A stretch of 55,630 nucleotides of DNA from Oculatellaceae cyanobacterium bins.114. GTDB taxonomy: Bacteria > Cyanobacteriota > Cyanobacteriia > Elainellales > Elainellaceae. A model generated the notes under the pieces. It had not been told where the DNA came from. It ran no database searches and saw nothing but the letters and a program-made list of their open reading frames with translations. Of the stretch, positions 6,982 to 48,228 are shown piece after piece. The stretch's first letter is position 1. Every line of letters begins with the position of its first letter. The stretch lies in the NCBI GenBank assembly GCA_033764315.1, contig JANRJA010000145.1:1-55630 (forward strand), given 5' to 3'. The position numbers and the translations under genes are program-made.

Positions 6982-8814
6982 CTAAACCTCTTTCAACAAA
7001 TCAGTTGAGTTAGCAAGAGGAGTAGCAATCATGACGGGTTCTTGATAGAGCGGCACCGTAAAAGTCACTGTCGAACCCAAACCCTCACCCATGCTATAAA
7101 AGTTGACTACGCCACCCATCGCTTCTACCAGTTTTTGAGAGATAGTCAGCCCTAACCCTGTGCCCCCATATTGGCGGGTTCGAGAGCCATCCACCTGGCT
7201 AAAAGTCTGAAACAACTTATCTTGCTTTTCGAGTGAAACTCCAATGCCTGTGTCTGCCACACTAATCTTGACAAACCCAGGTCGTTCTTGATTGTGAACG
7301 ATCACTTTTTTAGGCAAAATTTCGGCACTAATCGCAATGCCGCCCTCATGAGTAAACTTGATGGCATTCCCTACCAAATTCAGCATGACTTGCAAGAGTC
7401 GCTGATAGTTGCCATAGAGAATAACCTCATCTCGGGTGTCAGGAGTGAGAATCTCAAAACTCAAATGCTTTTGCTGTGCTTGCGGTCGCGTAAATTTCTC
7501 GACATCCGTTAACAAATCGTCTAGCTTCACCGGATCGAGGTCTAACGGCATCTTGCCTGCTTCTATCCGCGCGACATCTAAGATGTCATTGATGATATTT
7601 AGGAGGTGAACAGCAGAGCGATGGGCTTCTTCAATGAATTCACTTTGCTCAGCCGGGTCGTCTGCCATGCCATCCATGATCAGCTTGAGAAAGCCAATCA
7701 TCCCGTTGAGGGGAGTCCGCAACTCATGGGAGGTGTTCGCCAAAAATTCGCTCTTGAGGCGAGACGCTTCCTCTGCTTGCTTACGAGCTTCCTCTAGCTC
7801 CTGGTGTTGTTGACGCAGGCTATCGTTTGCCCGTTGCAGCTCAGCCGCAAGACTATGACTAGCCGCAAACAAAGTTGCATGGGCAATTCCTGTTCCAACC
7901 TGGTCTGCAAGCTCTTGAATCAGTTCAATTTCAACCTCGTTCCAAATGCGGCTGCGATCGAACTGATACAGAATGATCACCCCATTGGCTTGGTCTTTAT
8001 AAGAAGTCGGAACAGCCAACAAAGAATAGGGTTGCCCCTGTTCAGAGCGAGTGACATTCACCACGGCAGGTTTGAGAGTGGTTAGAGCCTGCTGTAAATA
8101 AGGTTCGTTGTCGATTAAAAACTGCCGCCCTAGCATCGACTTCAACGTCGATTGATAATATTCAGCGACTACTTCAACCTGGGTATCAGAGACCTCATAG
8201 GGACAGAGCAAACAGCGACTGGCTTCGAGGGCAATCCCTAGACCGTTGACGGTTTGCTGCCAAATGGTTTCTAGATCAAGGGTTCGACGAATATTCCAGG
8301 CAACCTGGGTCAGCAGCTTTTGATAGCGACTGGAACTGGGAGGAAGAGTGGGATAGGCAATACTATCCACTAATTCAAAGGCCTCAAATTTTGAGCAGAC
8401 ATAGAGAAATTGCCCAACAATCACCACCGCTGTAGCAGACCCCTGAGGCATCAAAACGGGGCTAATGTTGAGGTCAAAAACGAGATATTGATCAGCGCAG
8501 AGAAAAGGGTAATTGAACCGCTCTGGTACCAAATACTCTAAAATTCGGTGAATTCGGCTGAGATAGGACTCCTGGTTGATCGGCAAAAAACCATCTTCGA
8601 GTGGCTTACCCACTAACTGATCGCAAAGAAGGTGGTAGTGTTCGGCATCTCGCCAATAAAACGATAAACATTGACCAGCAGCGTTTTGGACAAGAACAAG
8701 GTCAACTCCAGGAGTGGGTAGAACAGGGTCCAATTGCTTAGCTACTGTCAATTCGACAGACTTCGTTAGGGGAAATGGGAGATCGCCAGGCAAAGTCATC
8801 AGCGTCAACTGCAA
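6982..8814 (-). CDS. GAF sensor histidine kinase
   Basis: GAF domain, coiled coil, H-box SHELRTPLN, N-box NLVGNAIKFT and G-boxes DTGIG and GTGLGL. Start uncertain. Confidence 0.92.
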   Translation of the reverse strand: MQLTLMTLPGDLPFPLTKSVELTVAKQLDPVLPTPGVDLVLVQNAAGQCLSFYWRDAEHYHLLCDQLVGKPLEDGFLPINQESYLSRIHRILEYLVPERFNYPFLCADQYLVFDLNISPVLMPQGSATAVVIVGQFLYVCSKFEAFELVDSIAYPTLPPSSSRYQKLLTQVAWNIRRTLDLETIWQQTVNGLGIALEASRCLLCPYEVSDTQVEVVAEYYQSTLKSMLGRQFLIDNEPYLQQALTTLKPAVVNVTRSEQGQPYSLLAVPTSYKDQANGVIILYQFDRSRIWNEVEIELIQELADQVGTGIAHATLFAASHSLAAELQRANDSLRQQHQELEEARKQAEEASRLKSEFLANTSHELRTPLNGMIGFLKLIMDGMADDPAEQSEFIEEAHRSAVHLLNIINDILDVARIEAGKMPLDLDPVKLDDLLTDVEKFTRPQAQQKHLSFEILTPDTRDEVILYGNYQRLLQVMLNLVGNAIKFTHEGGIAISAEILPKKVIVHNQERPGFVKISVADTGIGVSLEKQDKLFQTFSQVDGSRTRQYGGTGLGLTISQKLVEAMGGVVNFYSMGEGLGSTVTFTVPLYQEPVMIATPLANSTDLLKEV

Positions 8815-8980
8815 ACAACAGAATAAATAGAGTTCAGCCTAAAAAGGCTAAGGAATACCACCACGCTAAGATGCAACCCTGTTTGCTGAAGAGTCTGTAA
8901 TGTTAAGGCTCAATGCCTTGTGGTAAAACCTCCGCTCTAACTTAGCTTATCTATAGCCATGTGATCCACAAAAAAATGAG

Positions 8981-15540: not shown

Positions 15541-16160
15541 TCGCTGGGGGCTTGATGAGTGTGACCGCTCTTGGGGCGGGTGTCCTTGCTGGGGGTTATT
15601 CTCGGCTACCCGCTAGAACTCCCCCCTTTATCAGCAATCTCCTTCCTGTTCTCGAATATAGTGACGCACAGCTTCTAGTTCAAATCCCACAGTTGAAACT
15701 GCATATCCTCTCGCCCAAAAGTTCTCCCCATTGAAATTGCGTTGCTTGCCACTAAATTGACGTGCAATCGCTATGGCACTCTTGCCCTTGAGAAACCCCA
15801 CCACCGATGCAACGGTGTATTTTGGGGGAATCTCAATACACATATGCACCTGGTCGGGCATCAACTGCCCTTCAAGGATACGATACTCCTTCTGCCGAGC
15901 CAGTTCATGGAAAATCGGACTTAGAAATTTCCGAATTTCTCCAAACATCACCTTGCGACGATATTTAGGCGTAAACACAATGGGATACTTACAATCCCAC
16001 TTGGAGTGAGATAGGCTTTGATACAATTCCGACATGTTCTTTCCTCCTACGGTTTTGCTTCATCAAGCCACCGTGGGAGTTACTTTATTGTGGAACGCTC
16101 AAAGCGGGTCGAGTCGCACTGGTCGAACCAGTGGCTTACCTCAGAAATTTAGCTAGGGTG
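15536..16160 (-). mobile_element. IS200-family element, degenerate (ends approximate)
   Basis: Contains tnpA and hairpins near its upstream end, for example CACTGGTCGAACCAGTG at about 16117-16133. Confidence 0.75.
15631..16035 (-). pseudogene. tnpA: IS200/IS605 TnpA (Y1 HUH transposase), probably inactive
   Basis: CKYxIVFTPKYRRK, KGKSA, FWARGY and YIREQ are present, but the HUH motif reads DQVH instead of DHVH. Confidence 0.8.
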
Positions 16161-16274
16161 GGTTTGTTTAATGGAGTCGCTTGTCTCTTTTAGGGATATA
16201 TCGGCTCATCATTGCAGGCACTGTAAAATTAGAACAACTAAGGCAAGCAATGTTTGACCAGAGGTAGAACAATT

Positions 16275-16520
16275 ATGACGGTTCAAGAACTTGAGCAACA
16301 ACTGCTTCGTCTTTCACCCTCAGACAAACTTCGTGTCATTCAACTCCTTGTTCAAAGCTTAAATACGCTTTGGAGTGATGAGCACAATCATAGTCAGTCA
16401 AGTTCACCAACACAGCTTTCTGAGTTTTTTCGTCAGTCTCCCCTGACTGAAGTGGCTGCCACTGGAGAACTTGACCTCAGCCGCGATCGCAGTCTGTCAA
16501 GCGATCGCTTCACTCTATGA
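16275..16520 (+). CDS. Putative antitoxin of the adjacent PIN toxin
   Basis: Small ORF overlapping the vapC start by ATGA, with an antitoxin-like C-terminus (ELDLSRDRS). Confidence 0.7.
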   Translation: MTVQELEQQLLRLSPSDKLRVIQLLVQSLNTLWSDEHNHSQSSSPTQLSEFFRQSPLTEVAATGELDLSRDRSLSSDRFTL

Positions 16521-16936
16521 CCTATCTTCTCGATACTTGCCTCATCTCTGAATTGGTTGCCAAGCAACCTAACTCAAACGTTGTAGCTTGGCTTGATGCC
16601 CAAACTCCAGAAACACTTTATATTAGCGTGATTACGATTGGTGAAATTGCTAAAGGTATTAGCAAACTTGCCTCATCCCAGCGTAAAGATTCCTTAGAGA
16701 CCTGGCTTAATCAAACTCTTCCAACTCGTTTTGTAGATCGAATCTTGGGCATTGACGTAACAACAATGTTGTTGTGGGGTGATTTGGTTGGACGGCTTGA
16801 GCAACAGGGTCGAACATTACCTATCATTGACTCTCTGATTGCTGCGATCGCACTTCAACACTCCTTGTCACTCGTTACCCGCAATGAAAGCGACTTTAAT
16901 GGAACAAGTGTTGCAATTGTTAATCCCTGGTTATAG
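16517..16936 (+). CDS. vapC: VapC/PIN domain toxin
   Basis: YLLDTCLISE, DSLIAAIA, LVTRNESDF and VNPW motifs. Confidence 0.92.
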   Translation: MTYLLDTCLISELVAKQPNSNVVAWLDAQTPETLYISVITIGEIAKGISKLASSQRKDSLETWLNQTLPTRFVDRILGIDVTTMLLWGDLVGRLEQQGRTLPIIDSLIAAIALQHSLSLVTRNESDFNGTSVAIVNPWL

Positions 16937-20919: not shown

Positions 20920-21855
20920 TTGAACGCTGATCTGCAAAAACCATCAACCCAAACAGGTGCCATCTACGCCATTCTCGCCTATACCACCTGGGGCATGTTG
21001 CCCATCTACTGGAAATTTTTTGGGCAGGTTCCGGCAATAGAGGTGCTCACACATCGGGTAATCTGGTCGATGGTTTTTCTCACAGGGTTGCTGTTTTTGC
21101 AACACCGCCGAGCAGAATTTAGTAGCCTGTGGCAGGCTCCCGGTAAATTAGCTGTGTTGTTTACCACCGCTGCTCTGCTTGCCTTTAATTGGGGTTTGTA
21201 TATTTACGCGGTCAACGCCAATCATGTGATCGAGACCAGTTTGGGTTACTTCATCAACCCACTGGTCAACGTGCTGCTGGGGTTTATCTTCCTCAAAGAA
21301 AAGCTGACTCGATGGCAATGGTTTGCGGTTATGTTAGCCACCGTTGGAGTCGCTTATTTTGTGTTGCAATTTGGTCGGGTGCCGTGGATTGCCTTAGCTC
21401 TGGCTTTTTCGTTTGGGTGCTATGGCTTGTTACGCAAAATGGTGGCAGTCGCTCCAATGGTGGGTCTGGCAATGGAAACGTTGCTCGTGACGCCGATCGC
21501 TCTAGCCCTGACCGGATATTGGGCAGTCACAGGCGTGGGTCACTTTGGCATGGGTTGGGGCATCACCCTGTTATTTATGGGAGCCGGGATAACGACTTCG
21601 TTGCCGTTGCTGTGGTTTAACAATGCCGCTAAACGAATGCAACTCTCGACGTTGGGGTTCTTTCAATACCTCGCACCTAGTTTGCAGTTGGTGCTAGGGG
21701 TGTTGCTCTATCATGAGCCATTTACTGTGACTCATATCGTCACGTTTGGGTTGATCTGGTCGGCTCTGTTGGTGTATTCCACTACGTCGTTGATGCGGCA
21801 GAGGGGAGCCGGACGGGTCTTCGGCGAACCTACCAACCCATCCGACTCGGTTTGA
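20920..21855 (+). CDS. rarD: EamA family transporter RarD
   Basis: WGMLPIYWK, ETSLGYFINPL, YGLLRK and LGFFQYLAPSLQ; about 10 transmembrane helices. Confidence 0.92.
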   Translation: MNADLQKPSTQTGAIYAILAYTTWGMLPIYWKFFGQVPAIEVLTHRVIWSMVFLTGLLFLQHRRAEFSSLWQAPGKLAVLFTTAALLAFNWGLYIYAVNANHVIETSLGYFINPLVNVLLGFIFLKEKLTRWQWFAVMLATVGVAYFVLQFGRVPWIALALAFSFGCYGLLRKMVAVAPMVGLAMETLLVTPIALALTGYWAVTGVGHFGMGWGITLLFMGAGITTSLPLLWFNNAAKRMQLSTLGFFQYLAPSLQLVLGVLLYHEPFTVTHIVTFGLIWSALLVYSTTSLMRQRGAGRVFGEPTNPSDSV

Positions 21856-21946
21856 TTTTTGGATAGGCTTTCCCTATCGCTGGAGCAGACTGGACTCTCT
21901 GTATACACCTGATCGAATCCCTTCAACCAGCTCTGATGGTAGTTAG

Positions 21947-22097
21947 GTAGGGTGGGCACTGCCCACAGCCTGATTATCAATGTATCCTTGGCTAAAATTA
22001 TTGCCAAAGTGGAGCACTCAAATGCTTATTTTGTGGGCGATGCCCACCCTACAATTCTCAAATGCCTATTTTGTGGGCGATGCCCACCCTACCATTC
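21947..22097. repeat. REP cluster upstream of RAYT1
   Basis: GTAGGGTGGGCACTGCCCAC at 21947, and two inverted copies GTGGGCGATGCCCACCCTAC inside a 40-bp tandem duplication (22017-22056 and 22057-22096). Confidence 0.85.
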
Positions 22098-22191
22098 TGT
22101 CCACTATTGATGTCGAACCTGTTTCTAAAAGCCGGACGCTGGGTAATCTCAGGATAAAGTGTTATCCCCTACCCTCGATCGCACCGCTTCA

Positions 22192-22761
22192 ATGCCCCAA
22201 TATCGTCGTGTTTATACTCCCGGTGGTACCGTTTCTCTGACTCTTGTCACCTATAACCGTATTCCTATTTTTGCCGACTCCCAAAACATTGTCTACTTGC
22301 GATCGGCTTTAGCGGCACTGCGTTCTGAGATGCCCTTTGAAATTACGGCTGCTGTTATTCTGCCCGATCATCTCCATTTTCTGTGGACATTACCTCCTGA
22401 TGATTGCAATTATTCCAAACGAATTGGGCGGCTAAAAGTACTGTTCACCCGATCCTTACGAGGAAAACAAGCTTTACCTCAAAATGTTTCGTTATCTCGT
22501 CGTAAGCATCGAGAGAGTAATGTGTGGCAACGGCGATTTTGGGAGCATACGATTACGGATGAAACAGATTTGGCAAATCATTTTGATTATCTGCATTACA
22601 ATCCGGTCAAACATGGTTTGGCTAAATGCCCCCACCAATGGCAATATTCTAGTTTTCATCGATATGTGCAGAGAGAAGTATATAACCGTGATTGGGGATG
22701 TCAATGTGATGGGAAGAGTTCAGAGTTGTCGATATTTGATGATGTGAATATGGGGGAATAA
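22192..22761 (+). CDS. REP-associated tyrosine transposase (RAYT) 1
   Basis: YRR...TLVT, LPDHLH (HUH), WQRRFWEH, YLHYNPVKHGL and WQYSS; flanked by REPs. Confidence 0.92.
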   Translation: MPQYRRVYTPGGTVSLTLVTYNRIPIFADSQNIVYLRSALAALRSEMPFEITAAVILPDHLHFLWTLPPDDCNYSKRIGRLKVLFTRSLRGKQALPQNVSLSRRKHRESNVWQRRFWEHTITDETDLANHFDYLHYNPVKHGLAKCPHQWQYSSFHRYVQREVYNRDWGCQCDGKSSELSIFDDVNMGE

Positions 22762-22771
22762 GTTGGATGCT

Positions 22772-22987
22772 TTAGTGCCCACCTACCTCTATACATAAAG
22801 CTTTAATAGGGTGGGCACTGCCCACCCTACGCGACTGAACTAGCAAGTCATACAAGCCGTTGATCATGCGTTCTCCAAGGGTAAAGCGATGATCGCGGGG
22901 TAGGCGATTGAGGATGGGGATGTACCATTTCACCAGGTCATAGGTTTTTTGAATCACAGGCAGATCGAGTGACGCAGGTTTGATCAT
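22772..22987 (-). pseudogene. avd: DGR accessory variability determinant Avd, C-terminally truncated
   Basis: [41 protein letters not shown] matches the N-terminal half of cyanobacterial Avd as I recall it. The frame then reads into the REP at about 22830. Confidence 0.85.
22807..22830. repeat. REP downstream of RAYT1
   Basis: TAGGGTGGGCACTGCCCACCCTAC, with a partial copy at about 22774-22787. Confidence 0.85.
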
Positions 22988-23162
22988 GAAATCCCCTGAT
23001 GTAGAGTACAATAGAGTTCGAGTGCTATTAATGCCACTAGATATAGAGCATAGTGCATAAGTGACAAGACCCCTAATTTGTAAAAAAAAATTTGAGCGCG
23101 CAGAGCGCGAAGGAAAGAAGAGTAAAGAAGTACAAAGCGCAAGAGGGGAAAAGGGCAAAGGG

Positions 23163-23300
23163 CTAAGCAGTCCTGGAAGAAACACAGACGACTCGAAACC
23201 CAATGTCGTAGTCCCGATAACCGGGCGTGAGCCGATTGCGGTTAGCAGAGCGGCAGAGCCCAGGAGCGTCGTGCCAGGAGCCGCCCCGCAGCACGCGATA
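23163..23300 (-). other. DGR variable repeat (VR) candidate
   Basis: 3' end of the CLec domain (RGGSW to GFRV). Putative variable codons end in C/T (CAC, GAC, GCT, CTC, AAC, AAT, CTC, GGT, TAT, GAC, TAC, GAC), and avd lies immediately downstream. Confidence 0.7.
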
Positions 23301-26300
23301 GCGATCGTCACCTTCTGTGACCCAGGCACTTCCATCAGTCGGTGCTCCCTGATAGGACGGATGCCAATGATCTAAACACCATTCCCAGACGTTGCCATGC
23401 ATTTCTGATAAACCAAAGGCATTGACAACCCCAAAACTACCGACCTCACTAGTTTTTTGTCGATAGATTCCTTTGACCCCGTCTCCGTAGGTGTAGTTGC
23501 CGTTATAGTTAGCAAGATCGGTTGAGAGGGTGTCTCCCAAATGAAACGGTGGATAGACTCTCCCCTTGCCTTCTGAGAGAGGGGCTGGGGGTGAGGGGAC
23601 AGCCCGACAGGCATACTCCCATTCGGCTTCAGAGGGCAAGCGATAGATTTTACCCGTGTGCTGAGATAGACGGTCACAAAATTCCATCGCCGCACGCCAA
23701 GACACGACTTCTATGGGGTGGTTGTCGCCTTTAAAGTTGGCTGGGTCAAGTTCTAGATCGCGGTTGACGCGGGGTAACTGGGCGACAAATCGCCATTGCG
23801 CCTGGGTAATGGGAAACTGGCTCATGGAGAAGGACGGCACGGTGACGAGGTGTTGAGCCTCCACATCCACATCCTTGAGTTCTGGAAAGGAATATTGATA
23901 CCAATCTCGACCTACTTCATCGGGGGGAGAACCCATAAGAAACTCACCTGCCGGAATTGTCACCAAATCTAAGCTCAGGTCTTCCGTTAGATTCTCCTTG
24001 AAGACGGGAATGGATTTAACCTGGGCAATGACTTCCCCCTGCTTTAACTCCACAATCAGCATAGGCACTGGTTCACCACTAGCGGCACCAATCAGGCTCA
24101 AGGCTCTGGTGGCACCTTGCCGAAGCGGGAGGGGTTGACCATCACTTTCCACTATCTGACGGAGTTCAGCCTGTCCTGCCTTCATCATGCCCAGTGCTTC
24201 AGCCGCGCTGCGTCGCACCGCGATTTCTTCGTCGGCGTGCTGCAACAGGGCAAGCAACTTTTCAGCCCCAATTCCCAGCTTGCCTAATGCTTGAGCCGCG
24301 GCTTGCCGTGCTTCCAGGGTTTGATTGCGGTTCTCCAACATGCCAATCAAGTTGGGAGCGGCGATTTTGGCAGCGGCTCCGCGTTGACTCAAATCGTTAG
24401 CCGCCCGGATTCGATATTCCAATTCTGGGGCAGACAGTTCTGAGATTAACTTACGAATTCGACGGTTTTCTTGCACCCGCTCTAATTCTTTGCGGTTAAC
24501 TCCCGCTTTAGGATCTAACTCGGTTGTGACAAAGTCTGGAATCTTTGCCTCTCGTGCCCTATCTTCACAGCAGTCCCACACGGCCAGCAAAAAGCCACGA
24601 ATCACGTCTGAGGTTTCGTTAGCCTGAGCAAGTTTCTGATCGATCTCTTGAAAGAACTCTTGCCAAGCACTGTCTGGATTTTCCTGGCGGCAATTGTGTT
24701 CGACTCGATAGGTCGCGGCTAGATATTCTGCCAGTGGATCGAGGATGATGCGAATTTTATCTCTCGGTTCTGGGGATTGCACCACCAGCAATCGTTGCTC
24801 TAGATAAGTGAGGCGTGCTTTGGCATCGTCGGTTGCTGCTTTTGACAGGGCGGCGATCGCCTCTTCTTTTTTCACCAATGTCGGTCGATAGGTTTGCTTG
24901 AGGCATTCCCAAGCAACGATTTGAGCATCGCGTTGTATCTCTAGATCATCTCGCTTGTCGGGGATGTTTTGATTGAGGCGATTTAAGTAGCTGAGCATTA
25001 GCTTGGGCACCGAATCGGGCAAGATGCCCCCTGCTCCTTCTCGTTCTTGAATCAGGTGGTCAATATAGAGCCGTGCTAATAACACCGTGATGGGACGTTC
25101 ACCCGCAATGCGGCGGAGGCGATCGCAGGCATCCGAATATTCATCATCCCCAAACAAAGCTTGTTTGTGAATCGATTCTAGGTAAGCAGACATAAACGCC
25201 CAGAGGCGATTGGACTCAATTTGCAAGGGTTTCAAAACGGTTTTTCCAGCCCCTCCGAGAGGTTCCTGTAATCGAGACGTAACGATCAATGCTTTGGCTG
25301 GAAAGCTGGCTAAATCTGGAGTGACCCGTTTGCGGGTTGTTTCGCTCATCTCTGATAGGTGATCGACAATGACCAGAATGCGCTGGCGTTGCAGCAATTT
25401 TTGCAGCAAGTGGGGTGCGATATCTTCTGTCTGATTGATTAGAGCTTTGAGTTGCCCTGCGATCGCATCAACCAGCGTCTTGTTTTCATCCAACTCGGTT
25501 TCGATCAATACGGGCAGCAGACGATGAGCCAAAAGCTGTTTCTCTAGCCCCCACTGGGCAATCTGGCAGGTCAAGCTGGTTTTTCCGGCTCCTCCTTCCC
25601 CCATGATCAGCAGCACGGCTGTTTTTCGCTTAAAGGAATCACTAAGATCACTGCCCTTCAGTTGATTAATCAGTGTTCCATCCAGATGAACAGGCAGAGG
25701 AATATGAATGTTCCTATCCTTGACGGTATCTAGCTTTAAGAACCCTGCTTGAGTTTCCTGCCAATGCTGTTCTACCCAAGCATCTAATACACGAGGATGG
25801 TACTTTAAGGGCGACAACAGCTTCAACAACCAAGCTAGCCAGCTTCCCACGTGGGGGATCTTTTCCACCGCCTCGATCTTCTCATCCTCAATCCCGAATT
25901 TCAGTAACCATAACGGTTTCCATACAAAAATGCTGCCGTATGCACTTCCTATCACAACCAGCACTAACCCTGTTGCTACGATCCAAGGATAGCTTTGCCC
26001 CCAAGACACGACTTGATAGGTTGGCTGGGCGGTCAAGCTTCTCAACTGGGTTTGCAGTGCATTCCGAGTCAGGCGTAGGGATTCTAAATCGTCTGCTTTC
26101 GTTGCCCAATTGCTTTCATCTTGTTCGAGCAGTGTAAATACGCTATCTAGCTGTTGATAAAGGTCTTGCAAGTTCTGAATGTCTTTGGTTTGCCAACCTT
26201 GCAATTGATCTGAATACATTTGACTATCTCGACCGATCGCGCTTAAAGCCCGAATTGCATTGCTGCGAACTTGTAAGTCACTATCGCCCTGACTCATCAA

Positions 26301-26633
26301 CACCAAATCAGGAACTGCTGATTTAGCTTCCCAACCCATTTGTCCCAAGGTTTCGGCAGCATAAAACCGTGTCGTTGCATCGGCACTCAAGGCATTTGCA
26401 AGCGGCTGAACGGCTGCCTCACCACATTGCTCTAAAACCTGTTGGGCATCTACACGCTGTTGATCGTCTTGAAGCTGCTCAATGGCTTGCTCCAAAGAGT
26501 TGCGATCGCAGGGTTTACCATTATTCGCTAGAGCCGGAAGAAAGGGGAATACCACCAGAACCGTAACAACTGGTAGCCAATGTCCAACCCATCTGCCCAT
26601 AAACTTAGCTCTGGATAAAATGCGAAAAACCAA
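23163..26633 (-). CDS. HEAT repeat / NACHT-like NTPase / HEAT / FGE-sulfatase (CLec) protein, DGR target
   Basis: Signal-like N-terminus (possible start 26600), HEAT repeats, a transmembrane helix, Walker A GEGGAGKT, Walker B VIVDHL and more HEAT repeats. FGE motifs [23 protein letters not shown] and RVLRGGSW...GFRVV close the protein. Confidence 0.92.
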
Positions 26634-26811: not shown

Positions 26812-26967
26812 GCTAAACTGAGCATCAAGAGGAAATGGCAGAGTTCTACCGTAAATTCTAGTGAGGTATTGAATTCTGTTTCTGTTATTCCTAAGTATTG
26901 TGATGCGATCGCTTCCAAAGCATCTTAAGTTAGAGTCAGCAGACGCAGGGATAGTGCGATCGCCCCG

Positions 26968-27655
26968 GTAGGTTGGGTTGAAGTGACGAAACCCAACTCA
27001 ATCATTCTGTTAAGCAATGCTCCTGATTACCCATACTAATCTCATCTACGATTGGGTCATCAGATGCGTTATCGTCGTGCCATCACACCTAGAGCCACTT
27101 ATTTCTTTACCGTTGTGACTTATCAACGGCAACAACTGTTTCACCTGCCCCAGAACATTGAGCATCTCCGTTACGCTTTTCGCACGGTTAAAGCCAGTCA
27201 TCCATTTACTATTGAGGCGATCGTTGTATTGCCAGACCATCTTCACTGCATCTGGACACTTCCACCAGGTGATGCAGATTTTTCTACACGATGGCGGTTA
27301 ATCAAAACAATCTTTACCCGCACCTGCCCTAATCAACACAAACGGCAACAAAATCAAGCTCGACTGCATAAAAAGGAACAAGCTGTATGGCAACGCCGTT
27401 TTTGGGAGCACCAAATTCGAGATGAGCATGATTTGAATCAACACATCGATTACATTCATTACAACCCAGTGCATCACCAACTTGTGCAGCATCCCAAAGA
27501 TTGGCAATATTCAAGTTTTCATCGGTTTGTAGCCAGAGGGGTATATGAGGTTGATTGGGGAGCAGGAGATGCCATTTTGTTTGAAGTAAATGTTGGATAT
27601 GAGTAACAAATAAGAGATAGGTGAATGTTGGGTTTCCTCCGTCAACCCAACCTAC
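26968..27655 (+). mobile_element. REPtron 2 (RAYT with inverted flanking REPs)
   Basis: GTAGGTTGGGTTGA...AAACCCAAC (26968-26997) and GTTGGGTTT...TCAACCCAACCTAC (27627-27655) bracket the RAYT gene. Confidence 0.8.
27064..27606 (+). CDS. REP-associated tyrosine transposase (RAYT) 2
   Basis: YRR...YFFTVVT, LPDHLH, WQRRFWEH, YIHYNPV and WQYSSF. Confidence 0.93.
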   Translation: MRYRRAITPRATYFFTVVTYQRQQLFHLPQNIEHLRYAFRTVKASHPFTIEAIVVLPDHLHCIWTLPPGDADFSTRWRLIKTIFTRTCPNQHKRQQNQARLHKKEQAVWQRRFWEHQIRDEHDLNQHIDYIHYNPVHHQLVQHPKDWQYSSFHRFVARGVYEVDWGAGDAILFEVNVGYE

Positions 27656-27661
27656 TGGAGG

Positions 27662-28594
27662 CTACTGCCGCAAAAAATCCAGCATCTCCTGATAAAACGG
27701 TAACGCTTTGTTCTGAACCTCAGCGGCAGTGGCTAACACACCTAATACCTCAACCAGTGCCGCTTGTGTTGCATCAATGATCAGCGTATAAAAGGGTTCC
27801 CAGTTGTCAGATTGTTGTCCCTGGATTAAGGCTTCGATGTACCGCTGTCGATTTTCATTTGAGATGATGGCGATCGGATAGCCTGCTCGTAACAACAGCA
27901 AATTCATCAACAGTCGCCCTGCCTGCCCATTGCCATCGCGAAATGGATGAATAGTTACCAATTGGTGATGCGCCTCTGCCGCATAGAGAACCGGGTGCAA
28001 CGCTTGAGTATCCGCAAAATTAAGCCAACTGATAAATTCTGCCATTAGCTCCGATAATAAATCGTGAGGAGGATAGACATACCCCGTTCCCGCTGCCTGC
28101 CCATCTAAAGTCCGGTAACGTCCGGCTTCTTCGGGATGGATCTTGCGGAGAATCAAGCTGTGAATTTAGCGAATTTCCCATTCTCTCAGCGGTATCGATT
28201 GTTGGGCTAACGCTTCGATGTAGGCGATCGCCTCTGCATGTCCAATAACCTCTAAATGCTCCTGAAGCGTTTTTCCCCCAACCGTAATGCCTGTTGTTAA
28301 CACCAACTCTGTTTCACTCTGGGTTAGTGTGTTGCCTTCTAATGCATTGGAATGGTAAGTAAAGCGAACTTGATACCGTTGCCGCAGTTCACTTACAACC
28401 GAAGCAGGCAGCGGACGAAAGGTGTCGAGCCAAGTTTTAAGCTGTTGAATGACTTGAAGCGGTTCTTGTAGGGACATGGGATGAGCCGTTAACCATTGCC
28501 AAAGCAACGTCTCCGCATTCCAAATGCGGTGTTGTTTAAGATAGGCAATTAGTTCCGCTTGGGTTGCAGCCGTATTGCGGAGGTTCACTGTCAT
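27662..28594 (-). pseudogene. Fic family protein with an in-frame stop
   Basis: TYHSNALEGNTL and HPFRDGNGQAGR are in one frame, separated by TAA at 28166-28168 (EIR*IHSLIL). The first Arg of the Fic motif is replaced by Gln. Confidence 0.85.
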
Positions 28595-37795: not shown

Positions 37796-38776
37796 TCAAA
37801 CTTTGTGTTGCACTGAGAGCGTATTGCGTTCCCAAAACACACCCTTAGAAAAGCCTTGAATCTCTGGAGTGATCTCAGCCAACTCTAATCTTCTCTCTGC
37901 CAGCAAACAATACTCCTCACTCAAGTCAATTCCTAAGTACTGTCTGCCTAACTTCTTGCAAACAACAGATGACGTTCCGCTGCCTAAATAGGGATCAAGC
38001 ACGCGATCGTTGGGATTTGTACTTGCCAGCACCAGCTTGGCAATCAACTTCTCACTTTTTTGAGTGGGATGCAGGGTATTCTCTGGCATCGACCAAAATG
38101 GAACCGTAATATCAGTCCAAATATTAGAAGGATGGGTATCTCTAAAGTTGCCACTGGCTGTCGTGTCCCAATCTTTTGGAGTGCCATCGGTGTTTCGATA
38201 AGGAGCCAGGACTTTACGCCGGAGTTTCACCGCCTCTAAATTAAACGTATAGTGATCAGAGACTGTGCAAAACCAGATATCCTCACTCGAATTCTTCCAG
38301 TTTGATTTAGCTCCTCGTCCTTTTTCTCGCTCCCAGGTAATGCGGTTGCGAACTGTGAAGTGTGACGAAGCAACGGCAAAAATTGAGGCTGAGGTTAACC
38401 AATCTCCGCAGATGTAGATCGACGCTGTATCCGTAAGGAGAGGCTTGAATGTGGTCACAACTGCTTCAAGCCAAACCGAGTATTCATCTACTTTTCGTTT
38501 TGCAAACTTATATCCATCAAAATCCTTGCTGAGATTGTAGGGAGGATCCAGCAGGAGGAGATCTACTGATTTGAGAGGCAACTGTTTTGCAAGCTGGGTT
38601 GAGTCGCCCTGCATTGTGCCCGTTGGAAACTCAGAGAAGTAACCTTCAGACGGCACTTTTAGGAGTCGTTGACGTAATCGATCGCGATCGCCCTCTGTTA
38701 ACTCAAGGGTGCGGTTCATCGGTGCACGTCTTTTGTTAGCTGAATGGGGTCTGGATGGCTCACCCTGATCTTTCAT
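37796..38776 (-). CDS. Orphan N4-C/N6-A DNA methyltransferase (beta class)
   Basis: DPPY comes before HPTQK and the SAM-binding motif DPYLGSG. Start uncertain. Confidence 0.92.
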   Translation of the reverse strand: MKDQGEPSRPHSANKRRAPMNRTLELTEGDRDRLRQRLLKVPSEGYFSEFPTGTMQGDSTQLAKQLPLKSVDLLLLDPPYNLSKDFDGYKFAKRKVDEYSVWLEAVVTTFKPLLTDTASIYICGDWLTSASIFAVASSHFTVRNRITWEREKGRGAKSNWKNSSEDIWFCTVSDHYTFNLEAVKLRRKVLAPYRNTDGTPKDWDTTASGNFRDTHPSNIWTDITVPFWSMPENTLHPTQKSEKLIAKLVLASTNPNDRVLDPYLGSGTSSVVCKKLGRQYLGIDLSEEYCLLAERRLELAEITPEIQGFSKGVFWERNTLSVQHKV

Positions 38777-39012
38777 TCGTGTGTGTAGTTGCCCAACGGC
38801 TATGGGCAAAGGACTTTGCCGAGTTTAATCCCTCTTTTTTAAAAAGGGTTAGAAATGTCAAAAGCTCTTAAAACATAGCCTAGTATAAAGTGGCAAGAAT
38901 TCCCCTGCTATAGTGCAGGCATCTTGCTTGCGTCAGTAGGACACTCACCCTATCAACAGTGGCTTGGTTTAAGCCCAGACTGGCCCCTTGCCCACAAGTC
39001 ATGAGCGGTTTC

Positions 39013-46593: not shown

Positions 46594-46758
46594 AATTTCT
46601 ACTCTTAAAGCGATTCTCTATGAAATTCAAACTTAAGAAATTTTATTTGCCCAAATCCTAACATTTACCTTAATGATTCTTCGGGTTCTTTAATGGTAAA
46701 CCTGCAAATTTCCGAAATATCTCCGCTTTCTCCCCATCGGGGTGATACCATACTTTCT

Positions 46759-48228
<1,470 letters not shown>

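Follow-up and report, generated by a model that had tools for sequence, protein, structure and literature searches.

How does a gene that bears the marks of a diversity-generating retroelement (DGR) come to stand without the reverse transcriptase (RT) and the template repeat (TR) of such an element? The question is raised by a large receptor gene in the draft genome of Oculatellaceae cyanobacterium bins.114 (6.64 Mb, 251 contigs, 90.7% complete). We analyzed the whole of the contig that carries it (C187, JANRJA010000145.1; 55,630 bases, no N), which we call the window; coordinates given without a contig or locus name are positions in it. Protein domains were assigned with Pfam, defence models with PADLOC, RNA families with Rfam at gathering thresholds, and Avd proteins and REP-associated tyrosine transposases (RAYTs; REP, repetitive extragenic palindrome) with the NCBIfam models NF033474 and NF047646. 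The target open reading frame (ORF) occupies positions 23163-26633 of the minus strand (1156 codons from a TTG at 26633; stop codon 23163-23165) and ends in an FGE-sulfatase domain of the C-type lectin (CLec) kind. An original prediction, made from the letters of the DNA, had called the region a DGR remnant in which the receptor, a variable region (VR) and the accessory gene avd are left, with neither TR nor RT in the window. This description holds: a fragment of avd, a relic of the element that follows the TR, and a VR signature are all present, and we found no RVT_1 match and no TR in the window. The locus is very probably a cis DGR cassette that lost its core to a REP-RAYT unit, with the target intact and its VR frozen. 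The truncation of avd, the REP-RAYT unit as the cause of the damage, and the survival of the post-TR relic go beyond what had been predicted.

The broken part of the cassette lies directly downstream of the target. The avd gene starts on the minus strand with an ATG at 22987, at a spacing of 175 bp from the target stop codon that had been correctly anticipated, but what remains of it is a fragment of about 49 of about 115 codons (22841-22987). This fragment matches NF033474 over positions 1-43 of 104 (51.7 bits, cut-off 80; E 8.5e-14) and bAvd over positions 3-42 of 107. Its homology to the two full Avd proteins of the genome stops after ...GLYDLL, directly at a REP hairpin (TAGGGTGGGCACTGCCCACCCTAC; 22807-22830), through which the ORF continues to a stop at 22772. 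The locus thus encodes no full-length Avd; the gene breaks at the hairpin. Beyond the break lies RAYT1 on the plus strand (22159-22761; NF047646, 181.1 bits, cut-off 80; Pfam Y1_Tnp), and repeat comparison revealed three further REP copies on its far side (21946-21967, 22032-22052 and 22072-22093). The REP-RAYT unit, with REPs on both sides of RAYT1, spans 21946-22835, or 0.89 kb.

On the other flank of this unit, and starting 10 nt past the outermost REP, we found a minus-strand relic of the Sp-like post-TR element (21802-21935; nhmmer 79.7 bits, E 3.4e-22 genome-wide). It covers positions 13-149 of the 170-position profile and is without the first 12. The profile was built from five TR-flanking sequences, two from the resident DGRs on contigs C102 and C236 and three from the relatives G007, Leptothermofonsia ETS-13 and Leptolyngbyaceae RU_5_1; its other strong matches in the genome stand only behind the TRs of C102 and C236. 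Target with VR, GC hairpin (described below), avd fragment and post-TR relic are all on the minus strand and arranged as they are in C102, C236 and RU_5_1. Because avd ends at a REP and the post-TR relic starts 10 nt past the outer REP, we attribute the loss of the core to the REP-RAYT unit. The ancestral cassette would have been of the cyanobacterial type, target(VR)-avd-RT-TR-post-TR element. The unit would have taken the place of the rest of avd, the RT in full, the TR and the initial 12 nt of the post-TR element, and would have left the intact target with its last-written VR, the GC hairpin, about 49 avd codons and the distal post-TR element. Mutagenic retrohoming into the VR would have stopped with this event, and the VR is probably frozen because its template is gone and no matching TR exists elsewhere in the assembly. 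The avd fragment shares 40 of 42 residues with the RU_5_1 avd (dN 0.038, dS 1.4) and, together with the well-preserved post-TR relic, speaks for a loss of the core that is recent compared with the divergence of the window and RU_5_1 lineages.

Between the VR and avd, at 23082-23109 on the minus strand, stands a GC hairpin (CGCGC-TCT-GCGCG, then CTCAAA and T9) that is also found, in conserved form, after the VRs of the genome's full DGRs. It is preceded by a conserved CT-rich tract, has a stem of 5-6 bp and a T-run, and is found 60-100 nt past the VR. Equivalents occur in C102, C236 and C110 and at the loci L040, L044 and L105, that is, in full cassettes and some orphan targets, and are absent from those orphan targets that are most eroded. 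The hairpin may serve as a terminator or as a cis element of the DGR. A terminator scan did not list it, and the VR-avd spacer folded as RNA had no special structure (z-score -0.14).

The end of the target carries the signature of a former VR at 23169-23294 of the minus strand, the last ~125 nt, with the variable codons at 23202-23273 and a 3' boundary (AGG ACT) of the VR type rather than the TR type. The codon string reported at the FGE-sulfatase end of the 1156-codon ORF (TGG CAC GAC GCT ... GGG TTT CGA) was found there exactly. Since the TRs of this genome are too distant for the purpose, we compared the VR with templates from related loci. The TR beside the G007 orthologue gives mismatches at 13/24 template adenines and at 21/98 further positions (p 0.004); with the TR-like end of the ETS-13 copy, the counts are 15/26 adenines and 11/79 other positions (odds ratio 8.4, p 2.6e-5), and with the RU_5_1 TR, they are 15/29 and 19/88, respectively (p 0.004). 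Across the three templates the odds ratios for adenine-concentrated mismatch range from 3.9 to 8.4. The C/T endings that had been pointed out in the variable codons are also real: a pyrimidine third base is kept in 11/11 template-AAY codons and in 17/24 other codons, a difference that is weak alone. Among 34 family members, the last 36 alignment columns have a mean entropy of 1.69 bits, compared to 0.59-0.96 in the rest of the FGE domain, and the hypervariable columns are exactly the AAY codons, lying between invariant scaffold residues. Pairwise dN/dS against three orthologues amounts to 0.07-0.14 outside the VR and to 0.66-0.92 inside it, values that are rough with dS near saturation. These data identify 23169-23294 as a former DGR variable region and place the other parts of the receptor under purifying selection. 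The receptor had been described as hypervariable; the adenine pattern and the entropy support this in the past tense, the template now being lost.

A search of the whole assembly for a DGR-clade RT and for a TR had been suggested, and we carried out both. RVT_1 matches in the genome are confined to contigs C31, C102, C236 and C203. Two complete DGRs account for those on C102 and C236, the only contigs with a DGR-type RT. The first (C102:7700-16300; L118) comprises one TR (8706-8829), avd, RT and three VRs, which sit in three FGE-domain genes (frames of 936, 288 and 275 aa), and the largest target is immediately preceded by an AAA_5 gene of the MoxR type; its TR/VR pairs differ at 12-16 adenines and 0-3 other positions. 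The second (C236:1600-5450; L119) comprises an orthocaspase (Peptidase_C14)-CLec target, avd, RT and TR, with TR and VR differing at 12 adenines and no other position. The C31 and C203 matches are 22.5-23.5% identical to DGR RT, compared to 66% for the C102 and C236 RTs. The RT fragment on C203 was rejected as a DGR RT (22.5% identity; a YADD motif and an HNH-like tail by reading of the translation), as was C190 as a carrier of avd, where a weak bAvd match (E 0.83) was unsupported by tblastn with the avd 3' half. Beyond C102 and C236, the assembly holds neither a third DGR-type RT nor a further avd 3' half.

Neither resident template fits the window VR. TR_A differs from it at 25/87 and TR_B at 21/88 non-adenine positions, compared to 0-3 in cognate pairs, and this fit is no better than that of one cassette's VR to the other cassette's TR. 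Relaxed blastn of the VR against the assembly gave non-self matches that were at best 67-69% identical. In an adenine-tolerant scan, the best true candidate was TR_B with 29 non-adenine mismatches in 135 nt. The assembly thus contains no TR that matches the window VR almost only at adenines. It does hold an orphan CLec gene end at a contig edge (C110:31769-32593; L120) with a VR-like tip, a GC hairpin and T-run, and no avd; this tip has 18-19 non-adenine differences from TR_A and TR_B.

We compared ten long relatives of the receptor gene together with their flanking DNA. RU_5_1 is the one relative that still has an RT and a matching TR. Its cassette is spread over two contigs, the first (L040) with the target and the 5' part of avd, the other with the remainder of avd, an RT of 355 aa, the TR and the post-TR element; between its TR and VR there are differences at 11 adenines and 1 other position. 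The break in avd falls near codon 76, and the contig ends (tail of L040, head of L116) carry the inverted repeat CTGTTTGTAAA / TTTACAAACAG, which suggests an insertion element inside avd. At the G007 locus (L044; L032, contig C8), the target is followed by a RAYT with REPs on either side, then by an RT fragment (residues 156-257), the TR and the post-TR element; the TR differs from its own VR at 17 adenines and 3 other positions. The REP core of G007 (GTAGGATGGGCA) is one compensated change away from the window REP, and its REP-RAYT unit is related to that of the window and likewise lies inside the cassette, with different break points. Elsewhere in the G007 genome (contigs C62, C1 and C58), there are two full-length DGR RTs as well as a further RT fragment next to another CLec gene, and use of the stranded TR in trans is conceivable there. 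In ETS-13 (L038:8180-8480), the coding sequence is continuous into an unmutated TR (all AAY codons), which is followed by the post-TR element. This fusion looks like the product expected of a recombination between VR and TR that deletes avd and RT; the ETS-13 copy matches the window receptor only from residue 395 on. The contig of L045 ends in a RAYT-like gene, 0.2 kb downstream of the target. No DGR part was found downstream of the targets at L039, L041, L042, L043, L046 and L047 (6, 6, 4.9, 6, 6 and 1.3 kb covered, respectively), and the VRs of L041, L043 and L042 have no second match in their own genomes at E<=1e-5. The G009 and G002 orthologues contain in-frame stops. Flanking synteny with the G007 and G009 loci does not extend beyond target and RAYT.

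The original prediction had left it open whether the VR is frozen or diversified in trans by a remote DGR. Our data favor the frozen state, and diversification in trans, whether by a resident DGR or from a TR in the ~9% of the genome missing from the assembly, is in our view very unlikely. The two complete DGRs could supply RT and Avd, the 3' boundary of the VR type and the GC hairpin past it are preserved in the window, and activity in trans at incomplete loci has been proposed for Thiohalocapsa in passages of an earlier study (Dore et al., 2024; PMC10907252). The non-adenine mismatches to both resident TRs are however as numerous as between unrelated cassettes, the assembly offers no better template, post-TR elements occur only at C102 and C236 apart from the truncated relic, and the cassette of the locus itself has demonstrably been destroyed. 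Still more improbable is an assembly artefact, in which the contig would have been mis-joined at the REPs and the real chromosome would carry an intact avd-RT-TR. REPs are repeated sequences (4 copies within 900 bp, 13 core-pattern matches genome-wide) in a draft of 251 contigs, but a REP measures only ~24 nt, the window is free of N, and no other contig has an orphan avd 3' half, a third DGR RT or a third full post-TR element. DGR relics flank the RAYT unit on both sides in the correct order and on the correct strand, and a replacement of this kind, with other break points, is also seen at the G007 orthologue. That the gene was never a DGR target, but is a CLec paralogue with a tip under ordinary positive selection and a chance avd-like ORF nearby, can hardly be maintained against the avd fragment (E 8.5e-14), the post-TR relic (E 3e-22), the adenine-specific differences to three templates, and the RU_5_1 and G007 orthologues that carry a TR matching their own VR; it draws on the many cyanobacterial CLec paralogues without TR homology (described in passages of PMC7517822) and on the six of ten long relatives without a DGR part nearby.

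The locus might also be decaying as a whole, with a receptor that is no longer expressed or useful and has merely not yet acquired a stop codon. The stops in the G009 and G002 orthologues and the ETS-13 copy that begins to match only at residue 395 would agree with this. We nevertheless consider it improbable, as the 1156-codon frame is open, family-invariant residues are kept, and dN/dS is about 0.1 outside the VR; at the same time, a recent core loss, indicated by the well-preserved relics, leaves little time to judge. Several points weigh against our preferred reading, the replacement of a cis cassette core by a REP-RAYT unit with a receptor that lives on. With the given completeness and number of contigs, a TR or a third DGR could sit in unassembled DNA. 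The templates that revealed the adenine pattern come from other genera, and 14-22% of the non-adenine positions differ as well; the dN/dS values are approximate. Wetland metagenome contigs (0.05 of words shared) gave no usable coverage of the VR; at 80% likeness they contributed only short pieces of distant relatives, 61/79 of them less than 90% alike. The NACHT profile matches the receptor (residues 340-435) at 22.9 bits, under the Pfam cut-off of 26.7, PADLOC assigned no family to the target, and the receptor is only presumed to be expressed at present. Among the relatives there is no near-identical strain and hence no within-species comparison of the VR.

Is the loss of the core a chance event or a regular step? 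The receptor gene is flanked by two of the only three full RAYTs of this class in the genome. The second REP-RAYT unit lies upstream of the target at 26965-27658 on the plus strand (RAYT2, 27052-27606; NF047646, 200.4 bits) and has 17-nt inverted repeats of its own at 26965-26981 and 27642-27658. A RAYT is present in 4/74 CLec-target loci (774 kb), in all four 0.2-0.6 kb downstream of the target end, and none of the four has avd or a full RT. Orphan CLec genes in two other cyanobacterial metagenome-assembled genomes (L067:1612-2480 and L105:6804-7840) are accompanied by a RAYT2-like gene (66-67% identical) and by RAYT2-type REPs 0.3-0.55 kb past the VR; neither has avd, RT or a post-TR element. 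Core loss might accordingly be a recurrent "diversify, then lock" step, in which REP-RAYT units or insertion sequence (IS) elements land in the hairpin-rich avd-RT-TR core and fix a VR allele. Such a reading could be built on the two of three RAYTs that flank the receptor, the four of four that lie 0.2-0.6 kb past the VR, the REP-RAYT unit in G007, the split avd of RU_5_1 and the VR x TR recombination in ETS-13, but we regard it as unlikely. Among the 80 closest relatives of RAYT1 with 3-kb flanks, none has avd, RT or a post-TR element next to it and one has a CLec-like piece, which counts against this reading. An association with DGRs is therefore not a general property of RAYTs, and a general mechanism that targets RAYTs to DGRs is unsupported. 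Among the papers listed by our literature search for RAYTs together with diversity-generating retroelements, none deals with such a link, as judged by titles and abstract openings.

Alignment of the target protein with its 33 closest homologues points to the ATG at 26600 as the probable true start, which shortens the receptor to 1145 aa. At its N-terminus, a hydrophobic, signal-peptide-like segment (residues ~15-39; 26517-26591, minus strand, as all features of the protein) ends in ...PALA|NN and was recognized by Kyte-Doolittle windows >1.5 and the family alignment. HEAT/alphaRep-like repeats, predicted to be periplasmic, follow at 26223-26534 (Pfam HEAT at residues 110-135; alphaRep/HEAT chain matches with E down to 1.8e-20). 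A second hydrophobic segment, a predicted transmembrane helix followed by K/R, lies at 25911-25994 (residues ~214-241), and these two are the only strongly hydrophobic stretches in the receptor. Next come a P-loop NTPase core of the NACHT/NB-ARC type (25263-25628; Pfam NACHT 22.9 bits, NB-ARC 20.6 bits; Walker motifs), the NACHT C-terminal helical domain 4 (NCH4; 24495-24620, residues 672-713, 58.5 bits with a cut-off of 27), central HEAT_2 repeats (24189-24455, residues 727-815, E 7.9e-13) and the FGE-sulfatase domain (PF03781; 23187-23969, residues 889-1149, E 3.7e-46). By sequence, the C-terminal domain matches PvdO (5hha, E 9e-32) and the DGR variable protein TvpA (2y3c, E 7.2e-14).

With this architecture, the receptor is predicted to be a membrane-anchored NLR-like STAND NTPase with exported HEAT repeats, one transmembrane helix and a cytoplasmic NACHT-NCH4-HEAT-CLec part. 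The same topology had been proposed before, with HEAT outside and NTPase and CLec inside; the two hydrophobic segments, the ALA|NN site and the K/R residues fit it, and it stays a prediction. Walker A (GEGGAGKTS) and Walker B are conserved among the 34 family members, and PF05729 appears in the precomputed annotation of many receptor homologues. With its open reading frame, both Walker motifs and the family-invariant residues kept, the window receptor looks functional. The CLec tip, once diversified, may act as a ligand sensor, and ligand binding would lead to NTP-dependent oligomerization of the receptor. No enzymatic effector domain was recognized in it, and a role in anti-phage defence is putative. 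The protein family is widespread in filamentous cyanobacteria: 571 of 7999 candidates scored are homologues at E<=1e-30, the best of them 74% identical. The genome also encodes a paralogue of 908 aa (C106:59250-61970; L036:3251-5974) with 40% identity over residues 207-801; it has the same NACHT-NCH4-HEAT body with HEAT repeats in place of CLec at its C-terminus, and its NACHT score is 28.2 bits.

Several systems described before resemble parts of this locus. TvpA of Treponema denticola is a small surface lipoprotein. It shares the FGE-type CLec domain with the VR at its C-terminal end (2y3c; match over residues 124-279 of a 285-aa query), while in the window the CLec domain forms the end of an NTPase of 1145 aa, with a predicted location in the cytoplasm. 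With bacterial NACHT/Avs STAND NTPases, the receptor has in common the P-loop with Walker A/B, NCH4 and a C-terminal repeat or sensor region; unlike those systems, it has no PADLOC match or recognized enzymatic effector domain. As in other REP-RAYT systems (NF047646), a single RAYT gene is flanked by its own REP hairpins, but the window unit lies inside a retroelement cassette, unlike the 80 closest RAYT loci.

Among DGRs, passages of a study on multicellular bacteria describe degenerate loci with missing or pseudogenized machinery, shaped by transposons (Dore et al., 2024; PMC10907252). These DGRs are like the window in their central STAND NTPase and C-terminal VR-bearing CLec, some with a transmembrane segment. 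The window differs in that its TR is gone, with no trans template in the assembly, and in that the damage was done by a REP-RAYT unit, compared to IS elements and miniature inverted-repeat transposable elements; an exported N-terminal HEAT region is not among the domains listed in those passages. Likewise, the main text of another study (Vallota-Eastman et al., 2020; PMC7517822) reports dispersed CLec paralogues with varying TR homology, many with none. It also notes transposases of the IS200/IS605 family in the vicinity of 9 variable proteins from 6 species and describes a degraded cassette from Anabaena sp. 90. Its cyanobacterial clade has, as does the window, an FGE-type CLec grafted on signalling domains, but the stress there is on kinase and orthocaspase partners, and NACHT and HEAT are absent from that main text. 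In contrast to the cases presented in it, the window relic has remnants left on either side of the insertion, which makes the deletion mappable. Earlier publications thus already include degenerate DGR loci, NACHT-CLec targets and neighbouring genes of the IS200/IS605 family; the truncation of avd at a REP, the replacement of the core by a REP-RAYT unit and the post-TR relic are new here.

The remainder of the window is ordinary chromosome, with genes for LepA, PdxA, an invertase and a DNA methylase (37796-38809). Next to the second REP-RAYT unit, a Fic-domain gene is apparently split into two adjoining ORFs of 142 aa and 164 aa (27662-28594, minus strand); both have matches to PDC-S04, a candidate system of PADLOC, and the longer one has a further match to SoFic (E 4.9e-27). 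At 15631-16936, a Y1 transposase gene of the IS200 type (113 bits) is situated near a PIN-domain gene, and a TPP riboswitch (Rfam RF00059, 67 bits; 46755-46850, plus strand) lies upstream of the ORF at 46858-48228. Rfam gave no match within the DGR locus, tRNA genes were not found across the window, and promoter-like sites were at chance level (7 found, 6.4 expected).

Although the locus reveals no new mechanism, it offers a base-level picture of the death of a DGR whose target survives, with a deletion that can be mapped exactly. Among the related loci, one has kept an RT fragment and the TR, one is a fusion of VR and TR, one has a split avd, and six have nothing nearby. Taken together, these sequences suggest that the NACHT-CLec receptor family of cyanobacteria has, for the most part, survived its diversifier. 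This calls for caution when "DGR targets" or "remote targets" are counted by CLec homology: most of the copies examined here are frozen, not hypervariable.

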